The notes under the pieces: generated by a model
Database searches by the model: none
The model's input: the letters and a program-made list of their open reading frames with translations, nothing else
What the model was told of the DNA's origin: nothing
Shown here: piece after piece, positions 6,105 through 56,225 of the stretch
Layout: the number at the start of each line of letters is the position of its first letter
How positions within the stretch are numbered: position 1 is the first letter of the stretch
Program-made: the position numbers and the translations under genes
Source of the DNA: Omnitrophica bacterium GWA2_41_15
Lineage (GTDB): Bacteria; Omnitrophota; Gorgyraeia; Gygaellales; Profunditerraquicolaceae
Length of the DNA stretch: 64,000 nucleotides
Direction of reading: 5' to 3'
Assembly (NCBI GenBank): GCA_919901915.1
Contig: CAKKQB010000013.1
Location: forward strand, 64,192 to 128,191

Positions 6105-6255
6105 ATAGGGACTGCCCGACTGGACCCCGGCTTCCGCCGGGGTGACGAGCTAACATTGTCATTCCCTCGGTCAGCCTCATTACCATCGTCGTCATTCCGG
6201 CGAAAGCCGGAATCCAGAAAGAAATCTTGTCCACCTCGTAGGCGCGCGCTTATCT
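6105..6255. repeat. composite of family A-type hairpins between REC gene and HK gene
   Basis: ctggaccccggcttccgccggggtgac and gtcattccggcgaaagccggaatccag in opposite orientation. Confidence 0.65.
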
Positions 6256-6298
6256 TTACTCGTATTCACCTACCAGGTGGACTCTGGTTCCCTAAATG

Positions 6299-6670
6299 CT
6301 AACCAAGTAACTGGCGAATCTTCTCTAATAACACGTGGGCATCAAAAGGTTTAGTAATATAAACGTCGGCGCGCACATCTTTAGCTATTTCTTTATCAGA
6401 TTCATCAGCGCGCGCGGTAAAAATAATAATTGGAATATTTTTATATTTCTCGTCAAACTTTAGCAACCGGCATACTTTATAACCGTCCATTTTAGGAAGC
6501 ATTAAATCTAATATAATAAGGTCTGGATTCTCTTTTTTCGCTTTCTCTAAACCCTCCAGGCCATCCCCCGCGGAAATAACCTCATAATCATTAGCCTCTA
6601 ACCGCAGGCTGACAGTTTCAACCAAATCACTCTCATCTTCAATAATCAATATTCTCTTTTTACTCATCAC
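6299..6670 (-). CDS. stand-alone response-regulator receiver (CheY-like)
   Basis: 123 aa; ILIIEDE...DLIILDLMLPKMDG...K conserved REC residues; no output domain. Confidence 0.85.
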   Translation of the reverse strand: MMSKKRILIIEDESDLVETVSLRLEANDYEVISAGDGLEGLEKAKKENPDLIILDLMLPKMDGYKVCRLLKFDEKYKNIPIIIFTARADESDKEIAKDVRADVYITKPFDAHVLLEKIRQLLG

Positions 6671-6691
6671 ACGATACCTCCCTTAAAAATT

Positions 6692-6768
6692 TGGTGACGG
6701 CGGGTGGATTTGGACCACCGACTTAACGGGTATGAGCCGTTTGCTCTACCAGACTGAGCTACGCCGCC
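6692..6768 (-). tRNA. tRNA with CAT anticodon (elongator Met or Ile2/lysidine type; not initiator)
   Basis: Minus-strand GGCGGCGTAGCTCAGTCTGGTAGAGCAAACGGCTCATACCCGTTAAGTCGGTGGTCCAAATCCACCCGCCGTCACCA folds as cloverleaf; anticodon loop CTCATAC; anticodon stem lacks the 3 G-C of initiators; encoded CCA; T-loop reads TCCAAAT (C at position 55 unusual). Confidence 0.75.
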
Positions 6769-6775
6769 TTAATCC

Positions 6776-7264
6776 TTACTGTTCCAAGATAAGTTCAATA
6801 TTTCTAGAGCCGTTATTCAAAATAACCCTGTCAAGCTTTATATCAACTACAGTATGGACGCCAATCTTATCTCCCACTTTTACAATATTATCATTTATTA
6901 TCGCCAAAGAAGCTTTTTTATCACAAATTATACCCATAAGTTTTAAGCCAATTATTTCTTCGTCGCAAAAATAAGTCTTACCGCTAAAAGGGCATCTTCC
7001 CTGAACATGTCCTTTGTCCGGCGGCGATTGCCTCGCGGTCCGTGGCTCCTCCGAGAAGCGGGTAAAACTAGGAACCTGCTTGTCTAACGGGTTAATTATC
7101 GCGGATACACCAGGATTTGTTCCGTTAAGAGGTTCTTTTCTCATGGAAGGAACGGCATTGGTCAAGGACCTTTTCTTAATCACCTTTAGGGTATTTCCCC
7201 AGGCAAAAATAAAAACCAGAATTAACACTCCTGTAATAATTATTTTTACGCGTTCCTTATCCAT
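6776..7264 (-). CDS. PilP-like pilus assembly lipoprotein/periplasmic protein
   Basis: 162 aa; N-terminal TM helix; C-terminal GLKLMGII...INDNIVKVGDKIGVHTVVDIKLDRVILNNG matches PilP/GspC HR-domain pattern; position after pilO. Confidence 0.55.
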   Translation of the reverse strand: MDKERVKIIITGVLILVFIFAWGNTLKVIKKRSLTNAVPSMRKEPLNGTNPGVSAIINPLDKQVPSFTRFSEEPRTARQSPPDKGHVQGRCPFSGKTYFCDEEIIGLKLMGIICDKKASLAIINDNIVKVGDKIGVHTVVDIKLDRVILNNGSRNIELILEQ

Positions 7265-8012: not shown

Positions 8013-8218
8013 ATTCTCATGGGGCTGTTGCGAAATGCCATTTTTCGTCATTCCGGCGAAAACCGGAATCCAGAACTCTTTGATTTTAATAGACTTATGG
8101 ATACCGGCGACCGAGGGCGAAATGACCGAGGAAGTGTCGGAGCCTAACTGGGCTCGACCTTTCGCCAATATGACGATTTTAATGTATTTTGCAACAGCCC
8201 CCTCATGGATTTATCCGT
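8013..8218. mobile_element. MITE family A (~200 bp) with ~20-bp TIRs CATGGGGCTGTTGCGAAAT and internal hairpin GTCATTCCGGCGAAARCCGGAATCCAG
   Basis: near-identical copy at 51988-52171; TIRs read directly; spurious ORF 8035-8259. Confidence 0.8.
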
Positions 8219-8255
8219 GTTTATCCGTGTTCTTTTATCCGTGTCAATCCGTGTT
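8207..8255 (-). promoter_or_regulatory. cluster of 4 direct TTATCCGTGT (minus: ACACGGATAA) motifs with 10-14-bp phasing, just after pilMN stop / upstream of pilO
   Basis: ttatccgtgtttatccgtgttcttttatccgtgtcaatccgtgtt. Confidence 0.6.
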
Positions 8256-17286: not shown

Positions 17287-18916
17287 ACGTAGAATAATAA
17301 TAAGGTGTAGCGGCATGGAACTCCGCGGCACAGGTATCTACAAGTTTATACACGGGAAAAATATTAAATGATTCGCGTAATTTATACATGTCTTCTTCAT
17401 TTTTACCTAGTAAACGACTCAACTGCCTATCGCTAAAACCAAATTCCTTCGCTTGAGTAAGGAGCTCTTTTGTAATATTATTCTTGTTTTTTATAATCTC
17501 TTTCTCTAAATCAATTATTTCTTTTATATTTGCCAAAAACCAACGGTCAATCTTGGTTAATTCATTAATTTTTTCTATATCCACCCCTATCCTTAAGGCA
17601 TCGCCAATATAAAAGATCCTTTCAGCGTTAGGTATTCTTAACTTTTGCTCAATCTTTTCCCACGCGCCATTATCCAATTCGCCTAAACTTTCTAAACCAT
17701 ACTTTTTAATCTCCAGAGAACGCAGGCCCTTCTGCAAAGCCTCCTTAAAAGTCCTCCCTATCGCCATTACCTCACCAACGGACTTCATAGAAACTGTAAG
17801 CGTGGGATCAGCGGATGGAAATTTTTCAAAAGTAAAGCGGGGAATTTTTACCACGCAATAATCTATTGCCGGTTCAAAACAAGCGGGCGTTTCTTTGGTA
17901 ATATCATTAGGGATCTCATCTAAGGTATAACCCACGGCTAACTTCGCGGCAATTTTCGCGATGGGAAAACCAGTCGCCTTAGACGCCAGAGCAGAGCTTC
18001 TTGAAACCCTTGGATTCATCTCAATAATAACCATGCGCCCGGTTTCAGGATTAATCGCGAATTGAATATTAGAGCCTCCTGTACTAACGCCTATCTCTCT
18101 TATGCAGGCAATTGAGGCGTCGCGCATTTTTTGATATTCTTTATCAGTTAACGTTTGAATAGGCGCGACAGTAATACTATCTCCTGTATGTACGCCCATC
18201 GGATCAAAATTTTCAATGGAACAAACTATTACCACATTATCCATTGAATCCCGCATTACCTCTAATTCAAACTCCTTCCAGCCAATTACCGATTCCTCAA
18301 TAAGAATTTCGCTGTTCATGCTGGACTCAAGGCCATACTTTGCCAAATCCTTAAATTCTTCTATATTATAAGCAACACTTCCGCCTGTTCCGCCTAATGT
18401 AAAACTCGGCCGAATAATCACCGGAAAACCTATCTCTTTAACCGCCTCTATGGCCTCATTTAAATTATAGGCCTTTTTACTTTTAGGCAGGTCCAGGCCA
18501 ATTTTTTGCATCGCCTTTTTAAAAAGCTGCCTGTCTTCGCCTTTTTTGATTGCCTTTATATCTACGCCAATGGTTTCTACCTTATATTTTTTAAGGATTC
18601 CTTTTTCCGCTAAATCTATAGATATATTTAAAGCGGTCTGCCCTCCCAATGTAGGCAATAACGCGTCCGGCCTTTCTCTGGCGATAATCTTTTCTATGAC
18701 CTCTACGGTCATTGGCTCAATATATGTCGCGTCTGCCATTTGAGGGTCGGTCATAATAGTAGCAGGATTTGAATTTATTAAAACTACTTTATAACCTTCC
18801 TGCCTTAAAACCTTGCAGGCTTGAGTTCCGGAATAATCAAATTCACAACCCTGGCTGATAATAATCGGGCCTGAACCAATAATTAGAATCTTCTTTATGT
18901 CAGTACGTTTAGGCAT
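17279..18916 (-). CDS. carB: carbamoyl-phosphate synthase large subunit, N-terminal half only (split carB)
   Basis: [35 protein letters not shown]...; ends ...[14 protein letters not shown] exactly at the boundary between the two homologous halves (cf. E. coli ...YMYSTYEEE...). Confidence 0.85.
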
Positions 18917-18922
18917 AATAAT

Positions 18923-19029
18923 TAGCGTAGAGCGTAGAGCGGATAGTAAAATTAGCATTTAGCGTAGAGCGTAGAGCGTTTAATAAAAGTCTTTTGCCTT
19001 TTCTCTACGCTCTACGCTATACGCTATCC
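18923..19029. repeat. heptamer-array palindromic repeat, family F (AGCGTAG/AGCGTAT/AGCGGAT units), between carA and carB
   Basis: tandem 7-bp units in inverted arrays around AT-rich spacers. Confidence 0.85.
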
Positions 19030-20102
19030 TTCATCATCTCTATAAATTTCCCAAATAGGTATTTCGTATCATGCGGACCAGGAGATGCCTCGGGATGAAA
19101 CTGAACAGAAAAAACAGGCAATTTCTTATGCCGCATTCCTTCCAGGGTATCGTCATTTAAATTTATATGCGTAAGCTCTATATCTTTCTTATCCAAAGAA
19201 TCTATGTCCACGCAAAAACCGTGATTTTGCGCTGTTATACAAACTTTTCCTGTCTTTAAGTCCTTAACCGGATGATTCGCGCCATGGTGGCCGAATTTAA
19301 GTTTATAGGTTTTACCGCCAAAAGCAAGCCCTAACATCTGATGGCCAAGGCAGATTCCGAATATCGGCAATTTACCAATTAAGCCTCTTGTTGTTTCTAC
19401 AACATATTTTACTGCTGATGGATCTCCCGGGCCGTTAGAAAGCAAAACCCCGTCAGGTTTAAGCTCTAAAATATCCTCTGCTCTTGTTTCAGCCGGCACA
19501 ACTACTGCTTCGCAATTATGCTCAACGAGCTCTCTTAAAATATTATATTTTACCCCGCAATCAATCACTACAACCTTATATTTAGCTTTCTTTAAACTAG
19601 GCCAGATATATTTTTTGGCACAACTTACCTCTTTAACTAAGTCTATTCCCGTCAGTCCCAATGACTTTTTTACTTTTTCCACTAAACTCTTTTCATCCAA
19701 ATCTCGCGTAGATAAAACTGCCTTCATCGCGCCTTTTTCTCTGACATGCAAGGTTAGCGCTCTTGTATCTATCCCTTCAATACCCATGATATTATTTTCT
19801 TCTAAGTATTCTCCTAATGACTGCTCCTTGCGCCAATTACTGGCAATTTTACTATATTCTTTTACCGCGAATCCTTCCAGAAACAACCCTGCTGACTCTG
19901 TATCAAGCCTGTTTACGCCATAATTACCAATTAAAGGATACGTCATCGTAACAATCTGGCCTTTATAAGAAGGGTCTGTCAAGATCTCCTGATACCCTGC
20001 CATACTGGTATTAAAAACTATCTCGCCATAGCTTTCGCCAGAAGCGCCAAAAGATTTACCCCTAAATATCATTCCGTCTTCTAATACAAGAATTGCTTCC
20101 AT
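19017..20102 (-). CDS. carA: carbamoyl-phosphate synthase small subunit (glutamine amidotransferase)
   Basis: 361 aa; CarA N-domain + class I GATase (ICLGHQ, catalytic His/Glu). Confidence 0.9.
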   Translation of the reverse strand: MEAILVLEDGMIFRGKSFGASGESYGEIVFNTSMAGYQEILTDPSYKGQIVTMTYPLIGNYGVNRLDTESAGLFLEGFAVKEYSKIASNWRKEQSLGEYLEENNIMGIEGIDTRALTLHVREKGAMKAVLSTRDLDEKSLVEKVKKSLGLTGIDLVKEVSCAKKYIWPSLKKAKYKVVVIDCGVKYNILRELVEHNCEAVVVPAETRAEDILELKPDGVLLSNGPGDPSAVKYVVETTRGLIGKLPIFGICLGHQMLGLAFGGKTYKLKFGHHGANHPVKDLKTGKVCITAQNHGFCVDIDSLDKKDIELTHINLNDDTLEGMRHKKLPVFSVQFHPEASPGPHDTKYLFGKFIEMMKDSV

Positions 20103-20107
20103 ATTTT

Positions 20108-20136
20108 TAGCGTATAGCGGATAGCGTAGAGCGTAT
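20108..20136. repeat. family F heptamer array (single arm, 4 units) between purF and carA
   Basis: agcgtat agcggat agcgtag agcgtat. Confidence 0.7.
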
Positions 20137-20157
20137 AATAGTATAAATTATTATCTT

Positions 20158-28764: not shown

Positions 28765-28766
28765 TT

Positions 28767-29161: not shown

Positions 29162-29421
29162 AGTTCAGCTCTCGGAAGTACCCGTCGGTGTCATTGCGAG
29201 CCCGAAGGGCGAAGCAATCTCTTTAAAAAGATTGCTTCGTCGCTATCGCTCCTCGCAATGAGACTGCGTCATAATTCGGTTTTGGTGTCATTCCGGCGAA
29301 AGCCGGAATCCATTCTCCGGCAATAACACAACTCACTGGATTCCGGCTTTCGCCGGAATGACGAATTTTTAACGATTATGACACAGTCTGAATGACACAA
29401 GTACTTCCAAGAGCTGAACTA
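29162..29421. mobile_element. ~260-bp composite MITE bounded by 20-bp TIRs (AGTTCAGCTCTYGGAAGTAC) carrying a family C hairpin and a palindromic pair of family A hairpins
   Basis: TIRs at 29162-29181 and 29401-29421; internal gtcattgcgag...ctcgcaatgag (29188-29264) and 29286-29362. Confidence 0.7.
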
Positions 29422-41785: not shown

Positions 41786-41803
41786 GTGTTCCTCCTTTTA
41801 ATA

Positions 41804-44635: not shown

Positions 44636-44661
44636 CCTCTTATTTTTAATGTTTTAGTATT

Positions 44662-44741
44662 TAGCGGATAGCGTATAGCGTATATATAGGTTTTACTATC
44701 CGCTATACGCTCTACGCTATACGCTATACGCTTGATATTTT
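44662..44741. repeat. family F palindrome between nfnB and nfnA
   Basis: agcggat agcgtat agcgtat / atccgct atacgct ctacgct atacgct atacgct. Confidence 0.85.
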
Positions 44742-45569
44742 AAGATTACAGATATGCTTTTCTTTATCTAAATAAACACTGTTCCTCTTTGTCAATTCAT
44801 CCCAATTTACTTGAGTTCCGTCAAATTCCGGGCCATCAACGCAAGCAAATTTCGTCTTACCTGCCACAGTTACACGGCAACAGCCGCACATTCCAGTAGC
44901 ATCTACCATCAAAGGATTCAAAGAAACAATGGTTTTAACTTTAAAATCGCTAGCAACCTCGCAAACTCTTCTCATCATCGGTATCGGGCCGACTGCGTAA
45001 ATTAGCGAATAGCGGATAGCGGATAGTGAATAGCTTAATACCTCCTGCAAAATATCAGTAACAAAGCCTTTCCTGCCGCAAGAACCGTCATCAGTGGTTA
45101 TATAAAGCTCATCGCAAAACACCTTTAGCTCCTGCTCCAAAATCAATAAATCATTGTTTCTTGCGCCCAGTATAGTAGTAGTATGGTTTCCCGCTTCTTT
45201 CAAAGCCTTGGCAACCGGATAAATCTCCGCAATTCCTACGCCTCCGCCTACAAGAATTAAATTTCCAAAATTTTTAATCTCAGTAGCATGCCCCAGGGGC
45301 CCGGCCAAAGCGTATAATGAATCACCAACCTCCATCTTGCCCAGCAACTTAGTAGTTAAGCCAACCTCTTGAAAGATCAAGGTAATTGTGCCTATGTCAG
45401 AATTTTTATCTACTATAGTTAGAGGTATCCTTTCGCCTTCCTCGCATACCATAAGAACAACAAATTGGCCCGGTCTTACTTTCCTGGCAATAAGCGGGCT
45501 TAAGATTTCAAAGCGCTTAATTGTTACGTCTTGCGTTTGTGCTAAAATTTCTTTTTTGATTATCCGCAT
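44724..45569 (-). CDS. nfnA: NfnA/SudB (PyrK-like FAD/[2Fe-2S] subunit); in-frame heptamer-repeat insertion
   Basis: 281 aa; C-terminal CGCC...C 2Fe-2S; segment LSYSLSAIRYSLI encoded by repeat 45003-45036. Confidence 0.75.
   Translation of the reverse strand: MRIIKKEILAQTQDVTIKRFEILSPLIARKVRPGQFVVLMVCEEGERIPLTIVDKNSDIGTITLIFQEVGLTTKLLGKMEVGDSLYALAGPLGHATEIKNFGNLILVGGGVGIAEIYPVAKALKEAGNHTTTILGARNNDLLILEQELKVFCDELYITTDDGSCGRKGFVTDILQEVLSYSLSAIRYSLIYAVGPIPMMRRVCEVASDFKVKTIVSLNPLMVDATGMCGCCRVTVAGKTKFACVDGPEFDGTQVNWDELTKRNSVYLDKEKHICNLKISSV
45003..45036. repeat. family F single arm inserted in frame in nfnA
   Basis: agcgaat agcggat agcggat agtgaat. Confidence 0.75.
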
Positions 45570-45607
45570 AGAAAAAATTGATTACCGAAAGAAAAGGATT
45601 CGTTGAT

Positions 45608-45728
45608 GGGACTGTTGTGAAATACCAAACCTTGCGTCATTCTGAGGCCGAAAGCCGAAGAATCTCGACGCTGATAAGATCCTTCGCTTCGCTCAGGATG
45701 ACGAAAAAGGGTATTTCGCAACGGTCCC
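45608..45728. mobile_element. MITE family B: same TIR family (GGGACTGTTGYGAAATAC) with different internal hairpin GTCATTCTGAGGCC...GCTCAGGATGAC
   Basis: TIRs at 45608-45626 and 45709-45728. Confidence 0.7.
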
Positions 45729-45740
45729 TTGATCGGAATC

Positions 45741-46484: not shown

Positions 46485-47642
46485 TTAACGATTCCTCTTC
46501 AAAAAACTTTCTATTCTACTTAACGCCTCTTTCAAATTATCAAAACTTGCGGCATAGGATATGCGAATATTGTCCGCGAACTGAGCGCCAAAAGCTGTGC
46601 CCGGAATAACCGCGACCTTTTCCTCCTTTAAAAGCTGTTGGCAAAAATCCATCGCCTTAAGACCGCTGCTTTTTATGCTGGGAAAAGCATAGAAAGCACC
46701 CTGCGGCTTTGAACACTCAAGGCCGATGCGATTCAGCTCACTAACCACAAACTCTCTTCTTCGTTTATATTCACGCTTCATCTCTTCCACTGATTTTCTG
46801 CCTGAATGCATCGCTTCAGAAGCAGCTATTTGAGAAGTAATAGACACGCACATAATGGTATACTGATGAATCTTAGTCATAGCCGCGATAATCTCTTTTG
46901 GGCCGCAAGCAAAGCCCACACGCCAGCCAGTCATCGCGTAACTTTTGGAAAAACCATCAAGATAAACAGTCGAATTTTTTGCTTGAGGCAATGTCGCGAA
47001 AGGCGTATGAGTAAAATCATACGTCAAATCTCCATAAACCTCATCGCTGATACAAAGCAGATTATACTTCAACGCGATCTTCTTAATTTCCTCTAATTCT
47101 TTTTTAGTATAAGATACGCCCGTAGGATTAGTAGGGTAGTTCAATATAATTGCTTTAGCTTTCTTGTCTATGCTCTTCTCCAAGCTTTCCGGTGTAAGCT
47201 TAAAATTGTTTTTACTTGTATCGATATAAACAGGTATACCGCCGGCTAATTCACTAACCGGGCCGTAAGAAACATAACATGGCTCGGGTATAATTATTTT
47301 ATCACCCGGATTTATAATGGAACGCAAAACTAAATCCAAAGCCTCGCTTACCCCAACAGTAATCAAAATCTCTTCATCCGGACAATAATCCAAACCGTAT
47401 TTATTTTTTAGGTATTGTGAAATGGTCAGCCTTAATTTATACAAGCCCTTATTTGAGGTGTAAGAGGTAAAACCCTCTTCTAATGAAGCTATCCCTGCTT
47501 CGCGTATCTGCCAAGGCGTAACAAAATCCGGCTCACCCACGCCAAGGGAAATTACATCCTTCATGCCTAATACTAAATCAAAAAACGCGCGAATTCCGGA
47601 GGGATGCATTTGCTTAACTTTTTCGGAAACCAAATCTTTCAT
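46485..47642 (-). CDS. class I/II PLP-dependent aminotransferase (aspartate aminotransferase-like)
   Basis: 385 aa; NPTG, SKSYAMTGWRVGF PLP-lysine region. Confidence 0.85.
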   Translation of the reverse strand: MKDLVSEKVKQMHPSGIRAFFDLVLGMKDVISLGVGEPDFVTPWQIREAGIASLEEGFTSYTSNKGLYKLRLTISQYLKNKYGLDYCPDEEILITVGVSEALDLVLRSIINPGDKIIIPEPCYVSYGPVSELAGGIPVYIDTSKNNFKLTPESLEKSIDKKAKAIILNYPTNPTGVSYTKKELEEIKKIALKYNLLCISDEVYGDLTYDFTHTPFATLPQAKNSTVYLDGFSKSYAMTGWRVGFACGPKEIIAAMTKIHQYTIMCVSITSQIAASEAMHSGRKSVEEMKREYKRRREFVVSELNRIGLECSKPQGAFYAFPSIKSSGLKAMDFCQQLLKEEKVAVIPGTAFGAQFADNIRISYAASFDNLKEALSRIESFLKRNR

Positions 47643-47650
47643 CGTTTTCA

Positions 47651-47718
47651 GCGTTTAGCGGATAGCGTTTAGCGTATAGTTTTTTTTATCCGCTATACGC
47701 TCTACGCTATACGCTATT
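47651..47718. repeat. family F palindrome between lrp and aminotransferase
   Basis: arms around T8 loop. Confidence 0.85.
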
Positions 47719-48202
47719 AATACGATATAGCTATCCTCTTATTCTCTTCCCTGTGCTTCAAAATCACTCCATCTTCCTTATATTTTTTTAATAAAAAGTG
47801 CGTGACTATGCCGCGGATATTCTCGAGGCAAGAAAGTTTCTCCGCTACAAATTGTGAAACTTTTTGTAAATTCTTGCCCTCAACTATAACCAAAAGGTCA
47901 TACGTGCCGGAAATCAAGCAACAGTCAGTTACCTCCGGAAACGAATAAATACGCTCAGCAATTTTATCAAAACCAATATCCTTTTGCGGAGCAATATTAA
48001 CCTCTATCAAAGCCCTGACGGAAGGCTCTTCGGTTTTAATTAAATCCTTATTTATTACTGTTTTATATTTTAAAATTATCCCCTCTTTTTCATACTTTTT
48101 TATCGCCTCTTTTATTGCCTCCGGCTTTTTCTTTAACATTTTCGCGATCTCTTCCGGAGTTACAAGCGCGTTCTTTTCTAATATCTCTAATATTTCGTCC
48201 AT
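47717..48202 (-). CDS. lrp: Lrp/AsnC-family transcriptional regulator
   Basis: 161 aa; HTH + RAM domain. Confidence 0.85.
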   Translation of the reverse strand: MDEILEILEKNALVTPEEIAKMLKKKPEAIKEAIKKYEKEGIILKYKTVINKDLIKTEEPSVRALIEVNIAPQKDIGFDKIAERIYSFPEVTDCCLISGTYDLLVIVEGKNLQKVSQFVAEKLSCLENIRGIVTHFLLKKYKEDGVILKHREENKRIAISY

Positions 48203-48225: not shown

Positions 48226-48288
48226 GGAGAGAACAGATTACAGAGTACGGATTACTGAAAGATTTTTCTGTGCTCTGTTCTCTGTGCT
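48226..48288. repeat. family G heptamer palindrome (CAGAGAA/CAGAGCA units) forming nadE 3' end
   Basis: gagagaacagattacagag ... ctgtgctctgttctctgtgc. Confidence 0.8.
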
Positions 48289-49008
48289 TTCTTTAATATA
48301 GCATATTTTCGGCCCTTCCCTCTTATGCTCTGATTTCTTTACCATATTTTTTACTTTATTTACTTTCTCTTTTGATAAGACCTGTTTCTTCTTGTTTTCC
48401 AAACGCTCCAATATGTCATCTAACTCGTTATAGGTAAGCCCCATTTCTCCTTCATCGGTCTGGCCTGGCCAGAGTCCGGCAGTAGGCGGCTTAGTAACAA
48501 TGGATTCGGGAATCTTTAATTCTTTAGCCAATGCCCTTACCTGTTTTTTTAATAAACCGCCGATTGGCAAAATATCCGTTGCCCCGTCGCCATACTTGGT
48601 AAAATAACCGACTTCAATTTCAGATCTATTTCCTGTGCCGCAGACAAGATAATTAAGTTTATTGGCAAAATAATATAAAACTAACATCCTTAAGCGCGGT
48701 TTTAAATTTGCCAAAGCTAACGGCCCCGCTTTGGGTAAAATTTTCATGACATTGTCGTAAATATCAGCCAAATCAATTAATTTTATTTTTATCCCAAATT
48801 TCCTTGCCACTAACTTTGCGTCATCTAAATCCTGTTTTTGACTATGACAGCCAAGAAACAAAACCAAAAGTTTTTGTTTACCCAGCGCTTCCCTGGCTAA
48901 AACAGCTACCACCGCGGAATCTATCCCCCCGCTTAAACCCATAACAATACCCTTTGCCTTAGCCGCTTTGACCTGCTGCCTAATCCAAGAAATAATTTTC
49001 TTTTTCAT
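48238..49008 (-). CDS. nadE: NH3-dependent NAD+ synthetase; C-terminus supplied by heptamer repeat
   Basis: GLSGGIDSAVVAVLA PP-loop; last 16 aa STENRAQKNLSVIRTL encoded by repeat 48226-48288. Confidence 0.85.
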   Translation of the reverse strand: MKKKIISWIRQQVKAAKAKGIVMGLSGGIDSAVVAVLAREALGKQKLLVLFLGCHSQKQDLDDAKLVARKFGIKIKLIDLADIYDNVMKILPKAGPLALANLKPRLRMLVLYYFANKLNYLVCGTGNRSEIEVGYFTKYGDGATDILPIGGLLKKQVRALAKELKIPESIVTKPPTAGLWPGQTDEGEMGLTYNELDDILERLENKKKQVLSKEKVNKVKNMVKKSEHKREGPKICYIKESTENRAQKNLSVIRTL

Positions 49009-49832: not shown

Positions 49833-49901
49833 GTCATTCTGAGGCCCTGAAGGGGCCGAAGAATCTCGACGCTAATAAGATCCTTCGCTTCGCTCAGGAT
49901 G
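49833..49901. repeat. family B internal hairpin module without TIRs, overlapping mnmG 3' end
   Basis: gtcattctgaggccctgaaggggccgaagaatctcgacgctaataagatccttcgcttcgctcaggatgac. Confidence 0.7.
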
Positions 49902-51773
49902 ACAAAAATGAGATATTTTCTTCAAATACACCATTAAAATAGAAATGGCCGCGGGCGTTACTCCGGAAATTCGCGAAGCCTGGCCCAGATTTAATGGCCT
50001 AAACTTACTTAGCTTTTCTTTAACCTCTCTCGAAAGGCTATTGATAGCAGTATAATCCAACCCCTCCGGAAGCCTGATTTTTTCTAAATTTTTAAATCTC
50101 TCCACATCCTTTAATTGCCTCCGGATAAATCCCGCGTATTTTACCTCAATTTCAATCTGACGTAAAGCTAATTCCGGAAAATTATTGAAAAAATCCTCCT
50201 GGCACAAGTTTTTTAATTTCTCGATGTCAATCTGCGGCCTTTTTAAGAGCTCCTCAAGAGTTACGGATTTCTTTAAAGGAGAACTACTATATTGGGTCAG
50301 CTTATCATTGACCTCCCGCGTTGGCTTAAGACGCGTATTTCTTATACAATTAAAACCTTCGGTTATCGCGTCTTTTTTCCTTTGTAATTTTTCATAATCC
50401 TTGCTATTTACCAATCCTAAATCATACCCTATTTTTCCAAGGCGTAAATCCGCGTTATCTTCGCGCAAGATCAAGCGATATTCCACGCGCGAAGTAAACA
50501 TCCGGTATGGCTCAAGAGTTCCCTTAATAGTTAAATCATCTATCAATACGCCAATATAGCTGGTCGCGCGATCCAAAATCAATGCCTCCTTAGATTTTAC
50601 TCTTAAGGCCGCGTTTATTCCCGCGATTAAACCCTGGGCTGCTGCTTCCTCATAACCGGTAGTGCCATTAATTTGTCCGGCAAAATATAAATTCTTAATC
50701 AATTTTGTTTCTAAAGAAAGCTTTAGCTGGGTAGGCTCTGCCACAGTATGCTCTATTCCATAACCAAAACGAATAATTTTAGCATTCTCTAATCCTTCAA
50801 TTGAATGTATTAAGTCCGATTGCGCGTCTTCAGGCAAACTTGTGGACAGGCCATTCGGATACACCTCATCCGTAGACAAACCTTCTAGCTCCAGAAACAC
50901 CTGGTGCCTTTCTTTATCAGAAAATTTAACAATTTTGTCTTCAACTGACGGACAATAGCGGACTCCCGTTGCCTTGATAAGGCCGGTATAGAGCGGAGAA
51001 CGGCATAAATTATCAAGAATAATTTTATGAGTTCTTTTATTTGTATAGGTTATATGGCAGGGAACTTGTTTTTGTATTAACTTTTCACTTGAAAAAGAAA
51101 ACGCTCGCGCCGGATTATCCCCTTCCTGAACTATAAGCTTAGAAAAATCTATTGTATTCTTATCTAAGCGGCTGCAGGTCCCGGTTTTAAATCTAAGCAA
51201 ATAGAAACCTAACTCCTTTAGGTTATTTGTCAGGCCTATCGCCGCTGGCTCATTGATGCGCCCCGCGCTAAAAGACTTAAGGCCAACATAGATTAAGCCA
51301 TCTAAAAACGTGCCCGGACAGATAACCACGGTTTTGGATAAAATCTCCTCGTCCTTACTCGTAACCACCCCCATCACTATATTATCAGAAACTACCAATC
51401 TTTTTACCTCCGCCTCTTTGATAAAAAGATTTTCCTGTTTCTCCAATATTTCCTTCATATACTGGCTGTATATTTCCATATCCACCTGCGCGCGGGATGA
51501 TTGCACAGCCGGCCCCTTAGAGGCATTAAGAATTCTAAACTGAATTCCGCTAAAATCAGCGGCCTTCGCCATTTGCCCGCCCAAGGCATCAATCTCTTTT
51601 ACAAGCTGGCCCTTGCCTACTCCGCCAATCGCCGGATTACAGCTCATCAAGCCTATTGTTTTCACGCTCAAAGTAATAATAAGCGTCTTGCAGCCCATCC
51701 GCGCTGAAGCCAACCCTGCCTCAATTCCAGCATGGCCGGCGCCAATAATTATAACGTCGTAATTTTGAGTCAT
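49872..51773 (-). CDS. mnmG: tRNA uridine-5-carboxymethylaminomethyl modification enzyme MnmG; C-terminus runs into MITE
   Basis: 633 aa; IIIGAGHAG FAD motif; terminal HFCHPERSEGSY encoded by repeat 49872-49901. Confidence 0.95.
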   Translation of the reverse strand: MTQNYDVIIIGAGHAGIEAGLASARMGCKTLIITLSVKTIGLMSCNPAIGGVGKGQLVKEIDALGGQMAKAADFSGIQFRILNASKGPAVQSSRAQVDMEIYSQYMKEILEKQENLFIKEAEVKRLVVSDNIVMGVVTSKDEEILSKTVVICPGTFLDGLIYVGLKSFSAGRINEPAAIGLTNNLKELGFYLLRFKTGTCSRLDKNTIDFSKLIVQEGDNPARAFSFSSEKLIQKQVPCHITYTNKRTHKIILDNLCRSPLYTGLIKATGVRYCPSVEDKIVKFSDKERHQVFLELEGLSTDEVYPNGLSTSLPEDAQSDLIHSIEGLENAKIIRFGYGIEHTVAEPTQLKLSLETKLIKNLYFAGQINGTTGYEEAAAQGLIAGINAALRVKSKEALILDRATSYIGVLIDDLTIKGTLEPYRMFTSRVEYRLILREDNADLRLGKIGYDLGLVNSKDYEKLQRKKDAITEGFNCIRNTRLKPTREVNDKLTQYSSSPLKKSVTLEELLKRPQIDIEKLKNLCQEDFFNNFPELALRQIEIEVKYAGFIRRQLKDVERFKNLEKIRLPEGLDYTAINSLSREVKEKLSKFRPLNLGQASRISGVTPAAISILMVYLKKISHFCHPERSEGSY

Positions 51774-51823: not shown

Positions 51824-51987
51824 AACGAAAGTTCCTGTTTGCGCACGAAATTTTTTGCCATGCGCTACGGTTTACTCCTCGTTTCCGCAGTGACTTACCA
51901 AAAAAAACAAGTGCTCCAACTCGTCGTAAATCCTTGCGCACATTTGGCAAAAAAATTTCTAATTGTGCGCAAACAGGAACTTTCGTT
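51824..51987. repeat. 164-bp element bounded by 23-bp perfect inverted repeats (AACGAAAGTTCCTGTTTGCGCAC) adjacent to MITE A copy 2
   Basis: arms at 51824-51846 and 51965-51987. Confidence 0.65.
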
Positions 51988-52171
51988 GAGTCTGTTGCGA
52001 AATGCCATTTTTCGTCATTCCGGCGAAAGCCGGAATCCAGAACTCTTTGATTTCAATAGGCTTATGGATACCGGCGACCGAGGGCGAAATGCCCGAGGAA
52101 GTGTCAGAGCCCAACTGGGCTCGACCTTTCGCCGGTATGACGGTTTTAATGTATTTCGCAACAGTCCCTCG
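51988..52171. mobile_element. MITE family A, second copy
   Basis: ~95% identical to 8013-8218 including TIRs. Confidence 0.8.
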
Positions 52172-52280
52172 TTATCTGACAACCATCATTTTTTATCACA
52201 TTATTTACGAAAGAACCATAATTTTCCATATAAATTAAAAAAAATGCTATAATTTAGATTCTTTCGTATTTAAAATAATC

Positions 52281-52310
52281 CGTAGGGGCGGTTCGTGAAC
52301 CGCCCTTACG
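52281..52310 (-). terminator. 30-bp perfect palindrome CGTAGGGGCGGTTCGTGAACCGCCCTTACG downstream of apgM (terminator or repeat family)
   Basis: GC-rich 12-bp stem; minus strand followed by ATTATTTTAAAT. Confidence 0.5.
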
Positions 52311-52353
52311 ACGAAACATAAATCATTGAAACGGTTGATTGGCGCGTTTAATA

Positions 52354-53637
52354 TTATTCTCTCGCGCTTTTCACGAGGAGAGGCATGATATCCCGGCCAA
52401 GAAGCTCGCCAAGCGAACCAAGCGATGCCGCTTTTTCAGAAAAACTTAAAGAACCGTCGGGCTTAATGTTTCCACCCGAGATAAGCAAAGGAACGGGGTC
52501 AGAGGAATGGGCTTTTATGACGCAAACAGTAGAATGATCCGCGGTTACAGCAATAATCGTATTGTTTATATCTATTTTTGGCAAAAAGCTTGAAAAAAAA
52601 TACTTATCTATCGCTTCAATAATGTCTTTCTTTTTATTAAAATCTCCGTCGTGCGCTGGCTCATCAGGGCCTTTGATATGCACATAAATACCATCATATT
52701 TCTTCATTGATTCCAAAGCCACCTTAGCCCAAACAGGATAATCCACATCTAAATGCCCGCTTGCATCAGGAACATCAATTATATCCATACCTGTTAATAA
52801 GGCAATCCCTTTTTCTACAGGCATCTGCACAAATGAACCAAACTTTACATCGTAAAAACTCTGAATAGGGGGAAATTTAGGGATGTGGTCCCCCGCGTCA
52901 CGCGATAAAATCACATTGCCGGGCATCTTATTTTCAGAAATCCTCTTTTTATTAACTAAGGAATCATTTAAAACTTTATGGGATTTCTGGGTAAATTCAT
53001 TTAAAAGCGCGGCCGCCTCCTTTGACTCGGGTGAATTCTCGTATCCGGGCATAGGAATTGACTCAACCACAAAATTCTCAAATTTCTCCTTGGCAACACC
53101 AAACACACCCTCCCTGTCATACGCGGGATCAGTATTAGTAATCCATCCGGATAATCTAGAGCGAACCCCTCTTATCACCAAAATTCCGCGATGCCCAATA
53201 GTACTTTTAAATTCAAAAGTCGCGCTTGAAAGCGTAACCTTTGAATTAATTTCTTTTGATAAAGCGACAGCCTCTTCAGTGGTAAGATTTCTTCCCACGC
53301 GCCTATCCTTAATTGTCAAGCCATCTGGCGCCACTGTGGCAAAATTAACCCGGAAAGCCACATCACCATCATTTACAACCAACCCTTCCGCGAAAGATTC
53401 TAAGGGCCCTCTGCCTGTATAATATTTGTGCGCGTCATAGCCTAAAAGACTGATTACCGCGATATCCGACTCCGGAGCAATTCCCTTAGCAACAGGATAA
53501 ACAATACCGGTTCTGCCTTTTTGAGCAAGACGATCAAGATTAGGCGTTAAAGCCGCCTCTAAAGGAGTTTTATTACCTAATTCCTTAACCGGTAAATCAC
53601 CTAAACCATCGAGAACTATATAAATAATTTTTTTCAT
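52354..53637 (-). CDS. apgM: archaeal-type cofactor-independent phosphoglycerate mutase
   Basis: 427 aa; MKKIIYIVLDGLGD metalloenzyme N-terminus. Confidence 0.85.
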   Translation of the reverse strand: MKKIIYIVLDGLGDLPVKELGNKTPLEAALTPNLDRLAQKGRTGIVYPVAKGIAPESDIAVISLLGYDAHKYYTGRGPLESFAEGLVVNDGDVAFRVNFATVAPDGLTIKDRRVGRNLTTEEAVALSKEINSKVTLSSATFEFKSTIGHRGILVIRGVRSRLSGWITNTDPAYDREGVFGVAKEKFENFVVESIPMPGYENSPESKEAAALLNEFTQKSHKVLNDSLVNKKRISENKMPGNVILSRDAGDHIPKFPPIQSFYDVKFGSFVQMPVEKGIALLTGMDIIDVPDASGHLDVDYPVWAKVALESMKKYDGIYVHIKGPDEPAHDGDFNKKKDIIEAIDKYFFSSFLPKIDINNTIIAVTADHSTVCVIKAHSSDPVPLLISGGNIKPDGSLSFSEKAASLGSLGELLGRDIMPLLVKSARE

Positions 53638-53644
53638 ATTTTAT

Positions 53645-53700
53645 TAGCGCGGATAGCGTTTAATTTTTTCTATACGCTATACGCTCTACGCTATACGCTA
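53645..53700. repeat. family F palindrome between nrdJ and apgM
   Basis: agcgcggat agcgttt ... atacgct atacgct ctacgct atacgct. Confidence 0.85.
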
Positions 53701-53710
53701 AAACTTTTAT

Positions 53711-56068
53711 TTAACATTTACTAAATCCGCACCCCTGACATTTGACACAACCCTCTTCGTGACGCAATGTTCCTCCGCAATCAGGACAAACACCCATAAT
53801 CTCCCCATGCAATTTAGCGTTAAAAATAACAGCTTCATCACTAGAAGAGTGCTTCATAGCCATATCTACGGATTCTAAAGAAGCTACAGCCGAGGCGCCA
53901 TTTATCAACCTTTTCTCAATCACACGGGCAATAGCATCAGCGCAAGAAAATATTCGCTGCCCCTTTTCCCATGATGGACTGGGACAACGGATATTGCGCA
54001 ATTGCTCAATAATGGATTTTACCTCAATGCCTGAACGAAAAGCCAGAGAAACCAACCGGCCAATAGCTTCGAGCTGAGAAGCAGCGCAACCACCGGCTTT
54101 ACCCATCTGAGTAAAAAGCTCAAAAGGCATACCTCCTTCATCACTATTGGTTGTTATATATAAGTTACCGCATCCTGTAGCGACTTTGGTCGTTGTGCCG
54201 CTAATTACTTCCGGCCGCGGCTGCGGAGCAATTTCTTTCTTAGTCTCTGGAGTTTTTGTATCCTGTTTTTGCTCATTATGCGCGATATTTAAAACCTGTT
54301 CTTCACGGCTCCTATCACGATATATGGTAATACCCTTACAACCCAATTCATAAGCCAGCTCATAAGCGCGCTCGACATCTTCTATTGTTGCCTCATGAGG
54401 AAAATTAATAGTTTTGGATACAGCGTTATGTGTATATTTCTGAAAGACAGCCTGCATACGCACATGCCACTCAGGCGAAATATCGTGCGAAGTAACAAAT
54501 ACCCTCCTTATGTCTCCGGGAATATCCTTAAAATCATGAATAGAACCTTTTTCAGTAATTCTTTGTATCAACTCGCGGCTATAAAAACCTCTTTCACGCG
54601 CCACCTTTTCAAATAACGGCTCAACCTCCATCAATTTATTATTATCCATTACATTACGATAATAGGATAAAGCGAATAACGGCTCTATCCCTGAAGAACA
54701 GGGCCCGGCAATAATACTAATTGTTCCGGTAGGAGCAATAGTAGTTAAAGTGGCATTGCGCAGACGCAACCCCTTAGAACCTTCTTTTTTATCATAAATA
54801 CTGCCTTCAAAAACAGGAAATAATCCTTTCGTCTTGCCTAATTCCTGCGACTTCTTAATTGCCTCATTTAACACAAAAGACATCACCTTATCGGCAAGGT
54901 TAACCGCTTCATCGCTATTGTAAGGAATATTAAGCTGTATTAATAAACTTGCCCAACCCATAACGCCTAAACCGATTTTACGCGTTAATTTTGTGGCTTT
55001 TTCTATAGCAGGTAATGGAAATTTATTTACATCAATAAGATTGTCCAGAAAATACACGGCTAAATGCGTTACGCTTCTTAATTTATCCCAATCAATCCGT
55101 TCGGCGCACTTTGTTTGCTCAGGATTGATGGTGAGCGTAGTCGAACCATCAATTTCACAGCCTCCTGCTCCTTTTTCCTTAATCATCCGCGCCAAATTTA
55201 CAGAACCTAAATCACAACTTTCATAAGGCAAAAGTACTTGCTCACCACACGGATTTGTTGATTCATATCTTCCCAATTTCGGCGTGGGATTAAAATCATT
55301 CATCCTATCAATAAAAATAAGTCCTGGTTCGCCATTCTTATGCGCCTGTTTTACGATTAAATCAAATACTTTTTTCGCGCTAAGCTGCCGGACGGCTTTA
55401 TTTGTATGGGGGTCAATCAAATCATACTCTTGTCCATTTTGTAATTTCCGCATAAAATCATGAGTTATGGCAACCGAAATATTGAAATTAGTAATCTCTT
55501 TATTACTGTTCTTACAAGTAATAAATTCCAATATATCCGGATGGTCTACACGCAAAATACCCATGTTAGCGCCTCTGCGGCAACCGCCCTGCTTTACCGC
55601 CTCTGTTGCCGCATCATAAACTCTCATAAAAGAAATCGGGCCTGAGGCAACCCCTCCAGTGGTTCTAACCATAGAGTTTTTAGGGCGCAGGCGAGAAAAA
55701 GAAAACCCTGTACCTCCACCGGATTGATGAATCAGAGATGTTGCTTTTAATGTTTCAAATATCGACTCCATAGAATCTTCAATGGGAAGTGTAAAACAAG
55801 CGCTCAATTGAGCAAGCTCTTTTCCCGCGTTCATAAGGCAAGGCGAATTCGGCATAAATTCCAAGGCAGTCATAATACGATAAAAAGCCTCTTCTAATTG
55901 AGCTATCTCTTCTTCTGTCTTACCATAAAGTTTATCCGCGCTGGCAATCGCTTTTGCTACACGGCGAAATAACTCTTGCGGCTTTTCGACAACACAACCC
56001 GTCTCATCCTTGCTCAAATATCTTTTTTCTAATACCTTTAAAGCATTCTCAGAAAGTTTTAATGTCAT
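53711..56068 (-). CDS. nrdJ: class II (adenosylcobalamin-dependent) ribonucleotide reductase
   Basis: 785 aa; LKVLEKRYL N-terminus, catalytic Cys loop, C-terminal CPDCGG...CVKCQGC zinc ribbon. Confidence 0.9.
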   Translation of the reverse strand: MTLKLSENALKVLEKRYLSKDETGCVVEKPQELFRRVAKAIASADKLYGKTEEEIAQLEEAFYRIMTALEFMPNSPCLMNAGKELAQLSACFTLPIEDSMESIFETLKATSLIHQSGGGTGFSFSRLRPKNSMVRTTGGVASGPISFMRVYDAATEAVKQGGCRRGANMGILRVDHPDILEFITCKNSNKEITNFNISVAITHDFMRKLQNGQEYDLIDPHTNKAVRQLSAKKVFDLIVKQAHKNGEPGLIFIDRMNDFNPTPKLGRYESTNPCGEQVLLPYESCDLGSVNLARMIKEKGAGGCEIDGSTTLTINPEQTKCAERIDWDKLRSVTHLAVYFLDNLIDVNKFPLPAIEKATKLTRKIGLGVMGWASLLIQLNIPYNSDEAVNLADKVMSFVLNEAIKKSQELGKTKGLFPVFEGSIYDKKEGSKGLRLRNATLTTIAPTGTISIIAGPCSSGIEPLFALSYYRNVMDNNKLMEVEPLFEKVARERGFYSRELIQRITEKGSIHDFKDIPGDIRRVFVTSHDISPEWHVRMQAVFQKYTHNAVSKTINFPHEATIEDVERAYELAYELGCKGITIYRDRSREEQVLNIAHNEQKQDTKTPETKKEIAPQPRPEVISGTTTKVATGCGNLYITTNSDEGGMPFELFTQMGKAGGCAASQLEAIGRLVSLAFRSGIEVKSIIEQLRNIRCPSPSWEKGQRIFSCADAIARVIEKRLINGASAVASLESVDMAMKHSSSDEAVIFNAKLHGEIMGVCPDCGGTLRHEEGCVKCQGCGFSKC

Positions 56069-56149
56069 TTTTTTTCTCCCTATCGTATTACATTTGACAC
56101 TATCATATTACACGTATTGTCAAAAGTATTTAGTTAATTCTTTTATATC

Positions 56150-56225
56150 TGCTGGCTCTTGTCATTCCGGCGAAAGCCGGAATCCAGTCTTCTGGACCCC
56201 GGCTTTCGCCGGGGTGACATCTTAA
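56150..56225. repeat. pair of family A-type hairpins upstream of nrdJ
   Basis: gtcattccggcgaaagccggaatccag + ctggaccccggctttcgccggggtgac. Confidence 0.65.

Follow-up and report, generated by a model that had tools for sequence, protein, structure and literature searches.

The stretch of DNA considered here, referred to below as the window, comprises 64,000 nucleotides of contig CAKKQB010000013.1 from Omnitrophica bacterium GWA2_41_15 (assembly GCA_919901915.1, positions 64,192 to 128,191 of the forward strand). Its gene array lies entirely on the minus strand, and five of its intergenic gaps hold the subject of this report, eight copies of a 28-nt hairpin unit of the form (C/T)GTC-A(TT/CC)CCGGC-GAAA-GCCGG(AA/GG)T-CCAG, where about none is expected by chance. 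The units are intergenic without exception, five on the plus and three on the minus strand, and every one of them falls inside the blocks in which an original prediction, made from the letters alone, had placed a family of hairpin modules. They are listed here under the name of the class to which they are assigned below (CGTC-1), with the evidence for each: a match to the unit sequence, a fit to the published pattern of Ssn-related motifs (SRM), and predicted folding.

6120..6147, minus strand: CGTC-1 unit with CC/GG stem and loop GGAA, CGTCACCCCGGCGGAAGCCGGGGTCCAG (sequence match and fold)
6190..6217, plus strand: CGTC-1 unit with TT/AA stem, CGTCATTCCGGCGAAAGCCGGAATCCAG (match, SRM pattern fit and fold)
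8046..8073, plus strand: CGTC-1 unit within MITE-A1, a miniature inverted-repeat transposable element (MITE), with a C.A mismatch at the closing pair (GGC GAAA ACC) (match and SRM pattern)
29286..29313, plus strand: CGTC-1 unit with tag TGTC and tail CCAT, left half of a tags-outward homodimer (match, SRM pattern and fold)
29336..29363, minus strand: CGTC-1 unit, right half of the tags-outward homodimer, 22-nt spacer (match, SRM pattern and fold)
52013..52040, plus strand: CGTC-1 unit within MITE-A2 (match and SRM pattern)
56160..56187, plus strand: CGTC-1 unit with TT/AA stem, left half of a tags-outward heterodimer (match, SRM pattern and fold)
56192..56219, minus strand: CGTC-1 unit with CC/GG stem, right half of the heterodimer, 4-nt spacer (match, SRM pattern and fold)

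The 27-mer GTCATTCCGGCGAAAGCCGGAATCCAG, with at most one mismatch, occurs at 6191 (+), 8047 (+), 29287 (+), 29336 (−), 52014 (+) and 56161 (+), none being expected from 100 shuffles, and the window scan placed the form GTCACCCCGGCGAAAGCCGGGGTCCAG at 6120 (−, loop GGAA) and 56192 (−). For the core CCGGCGAAAGCCGG, eight matches were obtained against 0.25 expected. A generic pattern of GTC plus hairpin gave 28 matches in the window and 14–26 in shuffles, which was judged to be background level and of no use as a detector. The arrangements found are two tags-outward (head-to-head, HH) dimers, two HH dimers within MITE-A and one tags-inward pair, in which the unit at 6120..6147 turns its tag toward the next unit across a 42-nt spacer containing a decayed unit (GTCATTCCCTCGG...). 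Only stem pairs 2 and 3 distinguish the TT/AA form from the CC/GG form (T-A,T-A against C-G,C-G), and for both a hairpin with 8 bp in the stem and 4 nt in the loop is predicted (−9.0 and −10.8 kcal/mol as single-stranded DNA, ssDNA; z −4.6 and −2.5). The tag is CGTC in five units and TGTC in three, and the tail is CCAG or CCAT in all eight. Pairs 1 and 2 are A-T and T-A in the six TT/AA units, and C-G stands at pair 2 in the two CC/GG units.

Identity of the hairpins and paired changes in their stems

Units of this kind have been described in two separate literatures. The CGTC-1 family of repetitive extragenic palindromes (REPs) was defined by a CGTC, TGTC or CCTC tag, an 8-bp stem, a 4-nt loop and a CCA tail, with A-T then T-A "almost invariably" at the first two pairs (Di Nocera, De Gregorio & Rocco 2013, BMC Genomics 14:522; PMC3733652). 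In the same work HH dimers were found to predominate, heterodimers were seen in some species, the elements were intergenic with a transposase-free neighbourhood, and Neisseria dRS3 and Rickettsia RPE-6 were recognized as CGTC-1 elements. The NTS, CGTCATTCCCGCGMAVGCGGGAATCYRG, is a 28-nt oriented element which includes dRS3 and folds as ssDNA; SsnA, a 94-aa single-domain GIY-YIG nuclease, binds it and cuts a few nucleotides upstream (Chenal et al. 2025, Nat Commun 16:2388; PMC11893778). The NTS-like SRMs flank ssn genes across phyla, at least one motif lying near 71% of the ssn homologues surveyed and motifs on both sides of 42% (PMC11893778). Neither of the two papers cites the other. Because both name dRS3, and because the window units match feature by feature, the CGTC-REP and NTS/Ssn-motif literatures describe one object.

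The window units show the tag, the 8-bp stem with 4-nt loop, the CCA tail, the predominance of HH dimers, the intergenic location and the lack of an adjacent transposase. The published SRM pattern, HGTCWYN(0-2)YYVSBRHN(0-5)WNVSBRGN(0-2)RNCYNB (PMC11893778), fits seven of the eight units (shuffles: mean 0.09, maximum 1, n = 100), the unit missed being that with the GGAA loop. The CC/GG unit, whose pair 2 departs from T-A, is a minority subtype of CGTC-1. It is likely, in our judgment, that the hairpins are CGTC-1 REPs, the class of Neisseria dRS3/NTS, Rickettsia RPE-6 and the SRMs, that a constraint of the Ssn type keeps them, and that they spread as dimers and as parts of MITEs.

Paired changes were followed across genomes with two sets. 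One genome per species was scanned with a pattern having four free stem positions per side, GTCANNNNGGCGAAAGCCNNNNTCC, and at least 120 loci were obtained; wherever "120 loci" is written, at least 120, among the matches listed, is meant. The loci derive from Dehalococcoidia, Alpha-, Beta-, Gamma- and 'Delta'-proteobacteria, Parcubacteria, Elusimicrobia, Bacteroidota, Acidobacteriota, Gemmatimonadales, Verrucomicrobiia and Bipolaricaulota. The free positions are fully complementary in 123 of 137 copies, which represent nine stem types (TTCC/GGAA 67, CCCC/GGGG 18, TCCC/GGGA 16, TACC/GGTA 13, and others). The second set was collected by tag and tail only, as all [CT]GTCA-N18-TCCA in the 120 loci and the window, and yielded 207 hits with 93 distinct sequences. 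All eight pairs form in 164 hits and seven in 22, and about 20 hits are chance-like. For the 93 distinct sequences, chance-like rows kept, 87% of cells are paired against 70.6% after shuffling, and the covariation score is 0.405 against 0.147, a value reached by none of 500 shuffles; slid controls scored 0.04–0.15. Two-sided changes occur at seven of the eight stem pairs, with 109 Watson-Crick double changes and G.U in only about 27 of 744 cells. Among copies outside the first pattern, 53 have all seven inner pairs, the chance background being 0–5 pairs.

The same behaviour is seen close to home. The closing pair in the source contig is mostly C-G, with C.A at 8047 and with T-A and A-T in one dimer outside the window; compensated forms ATTCCGGT/ACCGGAAT and ATTCCGGA/TCCGGAAT lie just beyond the window (L124, 16343-16405). 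The unit at 8046..8073 is an uncompensated intermediate, in which one side has changed. At homologous positions of one MITE family the stems read ATACCGGC/GCCGGTAT, ATACCAGT/ACTGGTAT and ATACCCGT/ACGGGTAT. The paired substitutions are real and statistically robust, and they show constraint on a hairpin. The TT/AA against CC/GG exchange that keeps base pairing, on which the original prediction was built, is found exactly as described at stem pairs 2 and 3, and the covariation remains significant once copies from other genomes are aligned.

Nevertheless, structure is only part of what is conserved. Requiring GTC, an A-T first pair and six or more of the seven inner pairs, while leaving the base before GTC and the tail free, gave a set of 218 units. 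That base is C in 176 units and T in 36 (C/T-GTC in 212 of 218), and an unpaired CCA tail, unforced by the search, follows in 191 (CCAG 129, CCAT 53). Loops are almost all G-initial (GAAA, GGAA, GAAG, GCAA, GCAG and others), and conservation of the G-rich 4-nt loop across phyla is comparable to that of tag and tail. Tag, tail, first pair and loop are constant in Chloroflexota, Pseudomonadota, Desulfobacterota, Elusimicrobiota, Patescibacteria and Omnitrophota. According to the mutational map of SsnA, cutting is governed by the three bases upstream of the palindrome, GTC being needed, and binding depends most on the C right after it; the enzyme neither binds nor acts on RNA and has no activity on double-stranded DNA (dsDNA) (PMC11893778). 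The conserved tag and tail mirror this map. The degree of conservation of tag and CCA tail, both unpaired, equals that of the stem, so that sequence is under selection along with structure. Selection had earlier been ascribed to secondary structure and not to primary sequence; the former half of that statement stands as a constraint on the hairpin, while the latter goes too far.

Dimers, MITEs and ssn genes

Among 260 units of the pooled loci 88 dimers were counted, 75 with tags outward, 8 with tags inward and 5 in tandem. The tags-outward group consists of 63 heterodimers and 12 homodimers, and its commonest pairing, ATTCCGGC with ACCCCGGC (13 of 75), is identical to window positions 56160-56219. 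The TT/AA and CC/GG 'variants' are thus the two partners of the commonest tags-outward heterodimer and not alternative alleles, so that their initial description as alternative forms of one module is to be replaced. Each partner is internally compensated and yet differs from the other, which speaks for the 8-bp hairpin of the unit, and not a long inter-unit hairpin, as the constrained object. The identical 28-nt unit and the TT/AA + CC/GG heterodimer are met from Omnitrophota to Chloroflexota and Pseudomonadota, and owing to this recurrence across phyla the heterodimer, rather than the single hairpin, looks like the conserved unit. The point is relevant to the tolerance or discrimination of stem variants by Ssn enzymes, and so to any use of these as programmable ssDNA cutters. 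In metagenome-assembled genomes (MAGs) of Desulfobacterota (L016, L023, L039, L044, L063, L068, L100, L101, L112) a TT/AA + CC/GG (or CT/AG) heterodimer sits in a different inverted repeat, TTGATGRNYTCGTAAAAAGTC ... GACTTTTTACGARNYCATCAA, one arm of which also lies just downstream of the ssn cassette of locus L277.

Some of the units are carried by MITEs with terminal inverted repeats (TIRs) and 5-bp target duplications. The window elements and the features that belong to them are the following.

8021..8201: MITE-A copy 1 (MITE-A1), 181 bp, TIR GGGGCTGTTGCGAAATGC / GTATTTTGCAACAGCCCC, target duplication CTCAT at 8016-8020 and 8202-8206
8100..8175, minus strand: MITE-A1 partner unit, CGTC tag, stem ATA(TT/CC)GGCGA...TCGCCGGTAT, with a ~52-nt two-hairpin insert in the loop
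51988..52168: MITE-A copy 2 (MITE-A2), 181 bp, 93% identical to copy 1, target duplication TCGTT at 51983-51987 and 52169-52173
52067..52142, minus strand: MITE-A2 partner unit, CGTC-ATACCGGCGA...TCGCCGGTAT-C, with a ~52-nt two-hairpin insert in the loop
45608..45728: MITE-B, 121 bp, TIR GGGACTGTTGTGAAATACC / GGTATTTCGCAACGGTCCC, target duplication TTGAT at 45603-45607 and 45729-45733
49833..49903: MITE-B interior dimer without TIRs, homologous from one GTC tag to the other (plus a few A)

All three elements have TIRs, duplications, no coding capacity and dispersed copies, and share the TIR sequence GGGRCTGTTGYGAAATRC(C), the TIR of the family being GGGRCTGTTGCGAAATRC. The interior of MITE-B is a tags-outward dimer of other tagged hairpins, CGTCATTCTGAGGCCGAAAGCCGAAGAATCTCG at 45635-45667 (+) and CGTCATCCTGAGCGAAGCGAAGGATC at 45678-45703 (−). 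Because the copy at 49833-49903 is homologous to this interior (45635-45703) from tag to tag, tag-bounded dimers are copied independently of the MITE.

A metagenome scan for the TIR followed by 4–9 nt and CGTCAT returned 97 loci; about 85 of their ends follow GGGA or GGGG and are true ends. Eight or more kinds of tagged hairpin occur at these ends, including CGTC-1 units whose inner stem is GGC, CGC or AGT, units having a 9-bp stem and CTTGA as loop, GTCATCCTGAGCGAAGCGAAGGATC, GTCATTCTGAGG...GAAGAATC around a range of inner hairpins, and longer forms. The proposal that the MITEs are modular, with one TIR and different hairpins (8021-8201 and 51988-52168 against 45608-45728), is thereby borne out. 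Perfect 5-bp target duplications flank all three window MITEs and 23 of 32 complete elements (106–285 bp), four more agreeing at four of the five positions, and the duplications are AT-rich throughout. At partner ends, which the search had not selected, a GTCA-tagged hairpin lies within 18 nt of the TIR in 28 of 29 cases, and a tagged hairpin is found 5–18 nt inside 114 of 115 TIR ends, 86 of which had been selected for the hairpin. As the hairpins hold a fixed subterminal place at both ends, they may be a functional end rather than cargo. A MITE family with 5-bp duplications and tagged subterminal hairpins offers a testable route of spread for repeats 'without a dedicated transposase'.

No autonomous relative with these TIRs came to light: a TIR pair 0.4–12 kb apart with a matching duplication was absent from the loci collected, a small sample biased to short elements. 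Pfam scans of the window open reading frames (ORFs) detected no transposase, and 13 kb of the contig beyond the window showed none either. Clustering of ORFs from the 120 loci gave as recurrent neighbours only ubiquitous families (SDR, ABC ATPase, histidine kinase and similar), and no recurrent transposase. A literature search returned no paper matching the exact 25-mer, its translation VIPAKAGIQ, or the TIR. The ~52-nt two-hairpin module GGTCGAGCCCAGTTGGGCTC...CCTCGGGCATTTCGCCCTCGG occupies the loop of one CGTC unit in each MITE-A copy (8100-8175, 52067-52142), two stem positions of the former unit being T.G. In locus L196 the MITE-A1 partner unit is free of the ~52-nt insert, and the module stands in the loop of the other unit (8640-8817). 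The unit that precedes ssn in L274 has a different hairpin in its loop.

In other genomes the same stem type accompanies ssn genes. One of the 120 loci, from a Syntrophobacteraceae MAG (L097), encodes a 96-aa GIY-YIG protein (PF01541, E 4.5e-17) with CCGTCATTCCGGCGCAAGCCGGAATCCAG 9 nt before the start codon and an inverted unit 2 nt after the stop. The loci L274, L275/L276 and L277 have a similar layout, with a tagged ATTCCGGC unit upstream, in some with an extra hairpin inserted in its loop, and an inverted unit abutting the stop codon. All four distinct loci examined are thus flanked on both sides, and with ATTCCGGC units flanking these four loci the stem type of the window does flank ssn genes. 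The family of the L097 protein comprises at least 7,984 clusters at E ≤ 1e-10, and Ssn-type GIY-YIG proteins share 77–88% identity across 120 clusters (P0121-P0240). Many of these genes are on contigs below 3 kb, as expected for a multi-copy sequence that breaks assemblies, and many gene calls are N-terminally extended (115–147 aa) because the upstream hairpin is read through (translated ...PAQAGIQ...).

As to host and distribution, the PyrG protein of the window shares 81–89% identity with proteins listed by NCBI under Candidatus Omnitrophota. A stretch of 45 kb from three related Omnitrophota (PyrG 87–93% identical) contains no SRM, which hints at a lineage-specific repeat load; conserved synteny was absent from these three loci, leaving no comparison of filled and empty sites. 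In viral contigs (IMG/VR) the motif was present in 46 stretches only, none with an ssn gene, and from this rarity it is not a phage feature.

The window contains other repeats. A related tagged family forms the following dimer.

29189..29264: tags-outward dimer of the related family (T)GTC-ATTGC-GAG-[variable inner hairpin]-GAAGCAAT-C (from sequence)

Further (T)GTC-ATTGC-GAG dimers are at 21645-21735 and 23071-23178; the inner hairpin varies per copy and always pairs, and the family is missed by the SRM pattern because the pattern allows loops of at most 5 nt. GTAG-tagged palindromes, GTAGGGGCGGTTCG(T/C)GAACCGCCC and GTAGAGACGC-loop-GCGTCTCTAC, lie at 52283-52312 and 59738-59762, and at 2074-2103, 10019-10046 and 22868-22897; with GTAG and CGTC palindromes on one contig, both REP super-families coexist here. 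Arrays of the heptamers AGCGTAG, AGCGTAT and AGCGGAT (up to 11.4 copies), followed 30–75 nt on by reverse-complement arrays, occupy many short gaps in a nitrogen-assimilation gene cluster (18913-19049, 20098-20140, 37903-38027, 39387-39562, 41797-41840, 44645-44754, 44993-45035, 47639-47732 and 53634-53709). Other intergenic tandem units behave like the heptamers, namely TTTATCCGTG, CTCTGTG/AAAACAG and CGTATTACG.../...CGCAATACG (8207-8255, 13984-14046, 14687-14736, 15175-15198, 57400-57450; 48267-48294, 61008-61101; 62300-62380), one TTTATCCGTG array directly adjoining the right end of MITE-A1. Two pseudopilin-type ORFs with N-terminal methylation motifs are spanned by an exact 464-bp tandem duplication (14714-15598; 1.9 copies, 100% identical). 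Positions 571-617 and 9765-9811, 9 kb apart, form a 47-nt inverted match with 87% complementarity (AGTCAGAAGACAGTGGTTCGGCC...GCCGAAGCCGCAAGTCA), and part of this motif recurs at 617-640.

Proposed mechanism and rival explanations

The mechanism proposed builds on the four parts of the unit: the (C/T)GTC tag and the CCA(G/T) tail, both unpaired, the 8-bp stem with A-T as its first pair, and the G-rich loop of 4 nt. The tag-bearing strand would fold as ssDNA, and an Ssn of ~95 aa with a single GIY-YIG domain of family cd10448 would bind it and nick a few nucleotides upstream of the tag, as in the members studied experimentally. By analogy with these members, the same constraint probably operates on the window units: a unit that must fold alone and keep its tag, first pair, loop type and tail can change stem positions 2–8 only as pairs. 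In its arrangement the tags-outward heterodimer is the gene-less counterpart of the hairpin-ssn-hairpin cassettes of other genomes. Spread probably takes two routes, as dimers bounded by tags and as hairpins 5–10 nt inside each TIR of the MITE family, with its 5-bp target duplications. We infer that Ssn, rather than another enzyme, copies the dimers, and Ssn would presumably act on the copies of this organism too. A more far-reaching proposal, which we hold to be rather doubtful, is that the heterodimers are non-autonomous hairpin-ssn-hairpin cassettes copied in trans via Ssn nicks outside the tags, and that the hairpins are functional subterminal parts of the MITEs, coupling two mobile systems. 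It is put forward because a dimer is duplicated from tag to tag, because ssn lies in the 'spacer' of a dimer and because nearly all TIR ends have a hairpin. If true, copying through Ssn nicks would be a transposition-like mechanism so far undemonstrated for any GIY-YIG enzyme.

Several points weigh against the assignment to Ssn and its spread. To our knowledge, copying of these repeats by Ssn has never been demonstrated. Searches by GIY-YIG regular expression, phmmer and a hidden Markov model (HMM) built from 120 homologues, for which the L097 protein was the sole match, found no ssn gene in the window and 13 kb beyond it (5.4 and 7.6 kb; record positions 1-77005 of the 95-kb contig ENA ERZ1292638 NODE_67), nor in 524 kb of MITE-bearing metagenome loci, sibling Hainich H43 assemblies included; phmmer and the HMM found none in the three related Omnitrophota loci. 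Among genomes with more than 200 motifs, ssnA is present in 81% and absent from 19% (PMC11893778). In the Neisseria member, SsnA of N. meningitidis, activity is abolished when the stem sequence is changed and the hairpin kept (PMC11893778), and with such stem specificity two or more stem types per genome would need a tolerant enzyme or several enzymes. Copy counts include amplification, so that independent compensatory events are fewer than the cells counted. Finally, the predicted minimum of the heterodimer is one long hairpin (−29.6 kcal/mol) and not two local ones (about −20 kcal/mol), so that independent folding of the units would rest on kinetics or on a protein. The long inter-unit hairpin of a synthetic homodimer is predicted at −38.7 kcal/mol. 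That the heterodimer compels its units to fold into two local hairpins thus finds only partial support, since the long hairpin, although destabilised by ~9 kcal/mol, stays the minimum in the prediction. These energies lend equally partial support to the published view that heterodimers let long palindromes escape cleavage.

Might the main role of the hairpins lie in RNA, where they would stabilise 3' ends, mark processing sites, terminate transcription or give small RNAs, the covariation then reflecting selection for RNA folding? RNA roles were discussed for the class by Di Nocera et al. (PMC3733652), all copies lie between co-directional genes and downstream of a stop codon, the GAAA loop closed by C-G is a GNRA-type tetraloop, and positions 56142-56237 give a sub-threshold match (38.8 bits) to Rfam family RF02625, the consensus of which is itself a tags-outward dimer. 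With five plus and three minus units among genes all on the minus strand, however, transcripts would carry GAAA or UUUC loops, and downstream of the hairpins, as transcribed, there is no U-run. An unpaired tag and tail conserved across phyla would be superfluous in a plain stem-loop; SsnA does not bind RNA, and no Rfam family was found at gathering score. Rare G.U (some 27 of 744 cells beside 109 Watson-Crick double changes) and units in both orientations against a single direction of transcription favour a constraint at the level of DNA. Thus, of the two levels left open by the original prediction, RNA or cruciform DNA, the former is the less likely. We regard a chiefly RNA function as unlikely; it may exist as a side effect. 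Intrinsic terminators were considered and rejected, no A-run (a U-run for minus-strand transcripts) preceding the units on the plus strand. A bidirectional terminator-like hairpin (AAAAAAAGCGCCTCTGC-TTTC-GCAGAGGCGCTTTTTTT) is at 29120-29157, in the same intergenic gap as four tagged hairpins, and termination there does not require the repeats.

The remaining explanations concern how the pairs arise and which protein reads them. Quasi-palindrome correction is an established mutational process, and the paired changes might be its by-product, made by template switching inside a palindrome or by gene conversion between dimer partners, so that a change passes from one arm to the other, with a few master copies then amplified. 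Most copies do belong to a few abundant stem types, as amplification of master copies would give, and one-sided intermediates exist (8047 and the right unit of MITE-A1). Such a process leaves the constant tag, tail, first pair and loop across six phyla unexplained, and partners that differ from each other while remaining internally complementary are the opposite of partner conversion; as a sufficient cause it appears quite improbable, whereas palindrome-templated mutation may well be the route by which compensation arises. Mobilisation as REP/REPIN by a RAYT (an IS200/IS605-type Y1 HUH enzyme), or as MITEs of an IS630/Tc1-like element, has in its favour a strong general likeness (tagged palindrome, inverted doublets, intergenic location, recognition of ssDNA hairpins) and the GTAG-tagged hairpins of the window (52283-52312, 59738-59762). 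The tag here is CGTC and not GTAG, the MITEs have 5-bp duplications and not the TA of IS630/Tc1, no transposase or Y1_Tnp emerged from the Pfam scans of window ORFs and none was recurrent in the 120 loci, and no Y1 transposase gene flanked by CGTC units was reported by Di Nocera et al. (PMC3733652). This explanation is very unlikely, and the IS630/Tc1 or IS200-like cognate enzyme suggested at the outset finds no support. The perfectly palindromic core could also be read as the dsDNA site of a dimeric regulator or nucleoid protein, with half-sites that co-vary with the specificity of the protein, the more so as E. coli REPs bind gyrase and IHF (cited in PMC3733652). The asymmetric conserved flanks (CGTC against CCA), several stem types in one contig and the inactivity of SsnA on dsDNA all speak against it, and we give it hardly any credence. 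An Ssn-type constraint on single-stranded hairpins remains the reading that we prefer.

Comparison with known systems

The MITEs of the window resemble bacterial MITEs with GGGG-terminal TIRs and 5-bp duplications, Tn3-derived TIMEs among them: both are small (106–285 bp here) and non-coding, start with GGGG or GGGA and have AT-rich 5-bp duplications. The window TIR differs in being ~19 bp long with a tagged hairpin instead of a 38-bp Tn3-type end, and no related transposase was found in the sequences scanned. The REP/REPIN and RAYT system likewise has a short tagged palindrome, inverted doublets as the likely spreading unit, ssDNA-hairpin recognition and a single-copy cognate gene flanked by repeats. 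It differs in the tag (GTAG against CGTC) and in the enzyme (HUH Y1 against GIY-YIG).

The consensus of RF02625 (WsnRNA46, Wolbachia sRNA 46) is a tags-outward dimer, GUGUCA...UCCAGAA / CUGGAU...GAUGACAC. The window dimer at 56142-56237 aligns to its tag, tail and stem ends (38.8 bits, E 5e-07), a score below the gathering score of 65.3 at which membership was rejected, and in the Wolbachia units, unlike the window dimer, the stems are longer and the spacer measures 50 nt.

The NTS CGTCATTCCCGCGMAVGCGGGAATCYRG and the window unit CGTCATTCCGGCGAAAGCCGGAATCCAG are of equal length and agree in tag, tail and first four pairs; at the inner stem the window has GGC/GCC and the NTS CGC/GCG. A role in natural transformation is known from N. 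meningitidis only (NTS/SsnA). Dimers, heterodimers, covariation and carriage by MITEs are not discussed in the work on the NTS, which does not cite the CGTC-REP classification (PMC11893778).

The closest description is that of the CGTC-1 family itself (PMC3733652), with which the window units share several stem, loop and tail subtypes per family and a location downstream of genes. In Halothiobacillus neapolitanus all CGTC-1 dimers lie inside a 41-bp palindrome, GGGaaGCTT-GAAAaACC...GGTaTTTCgAAGC-gCCC, which by eye looks similar to the window TIR GGGACTGTTGTGAAATACC. In the window the palindrome on the flanks forms the end of a transposon that makes 5-bp target duplications, unreported in PMC3733652, and Candidatus Omnitrophota is not among the five phyla of that paper. 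The catalogue of tagged palindromic repeats whose stems vary pairwise dates from 2013, and knowledge of their cognate nuclease from 2025. The hairpins are therefore not a new kind of element; what is new is the host phylum, the extra stem subtypes and the MITE that carries them.

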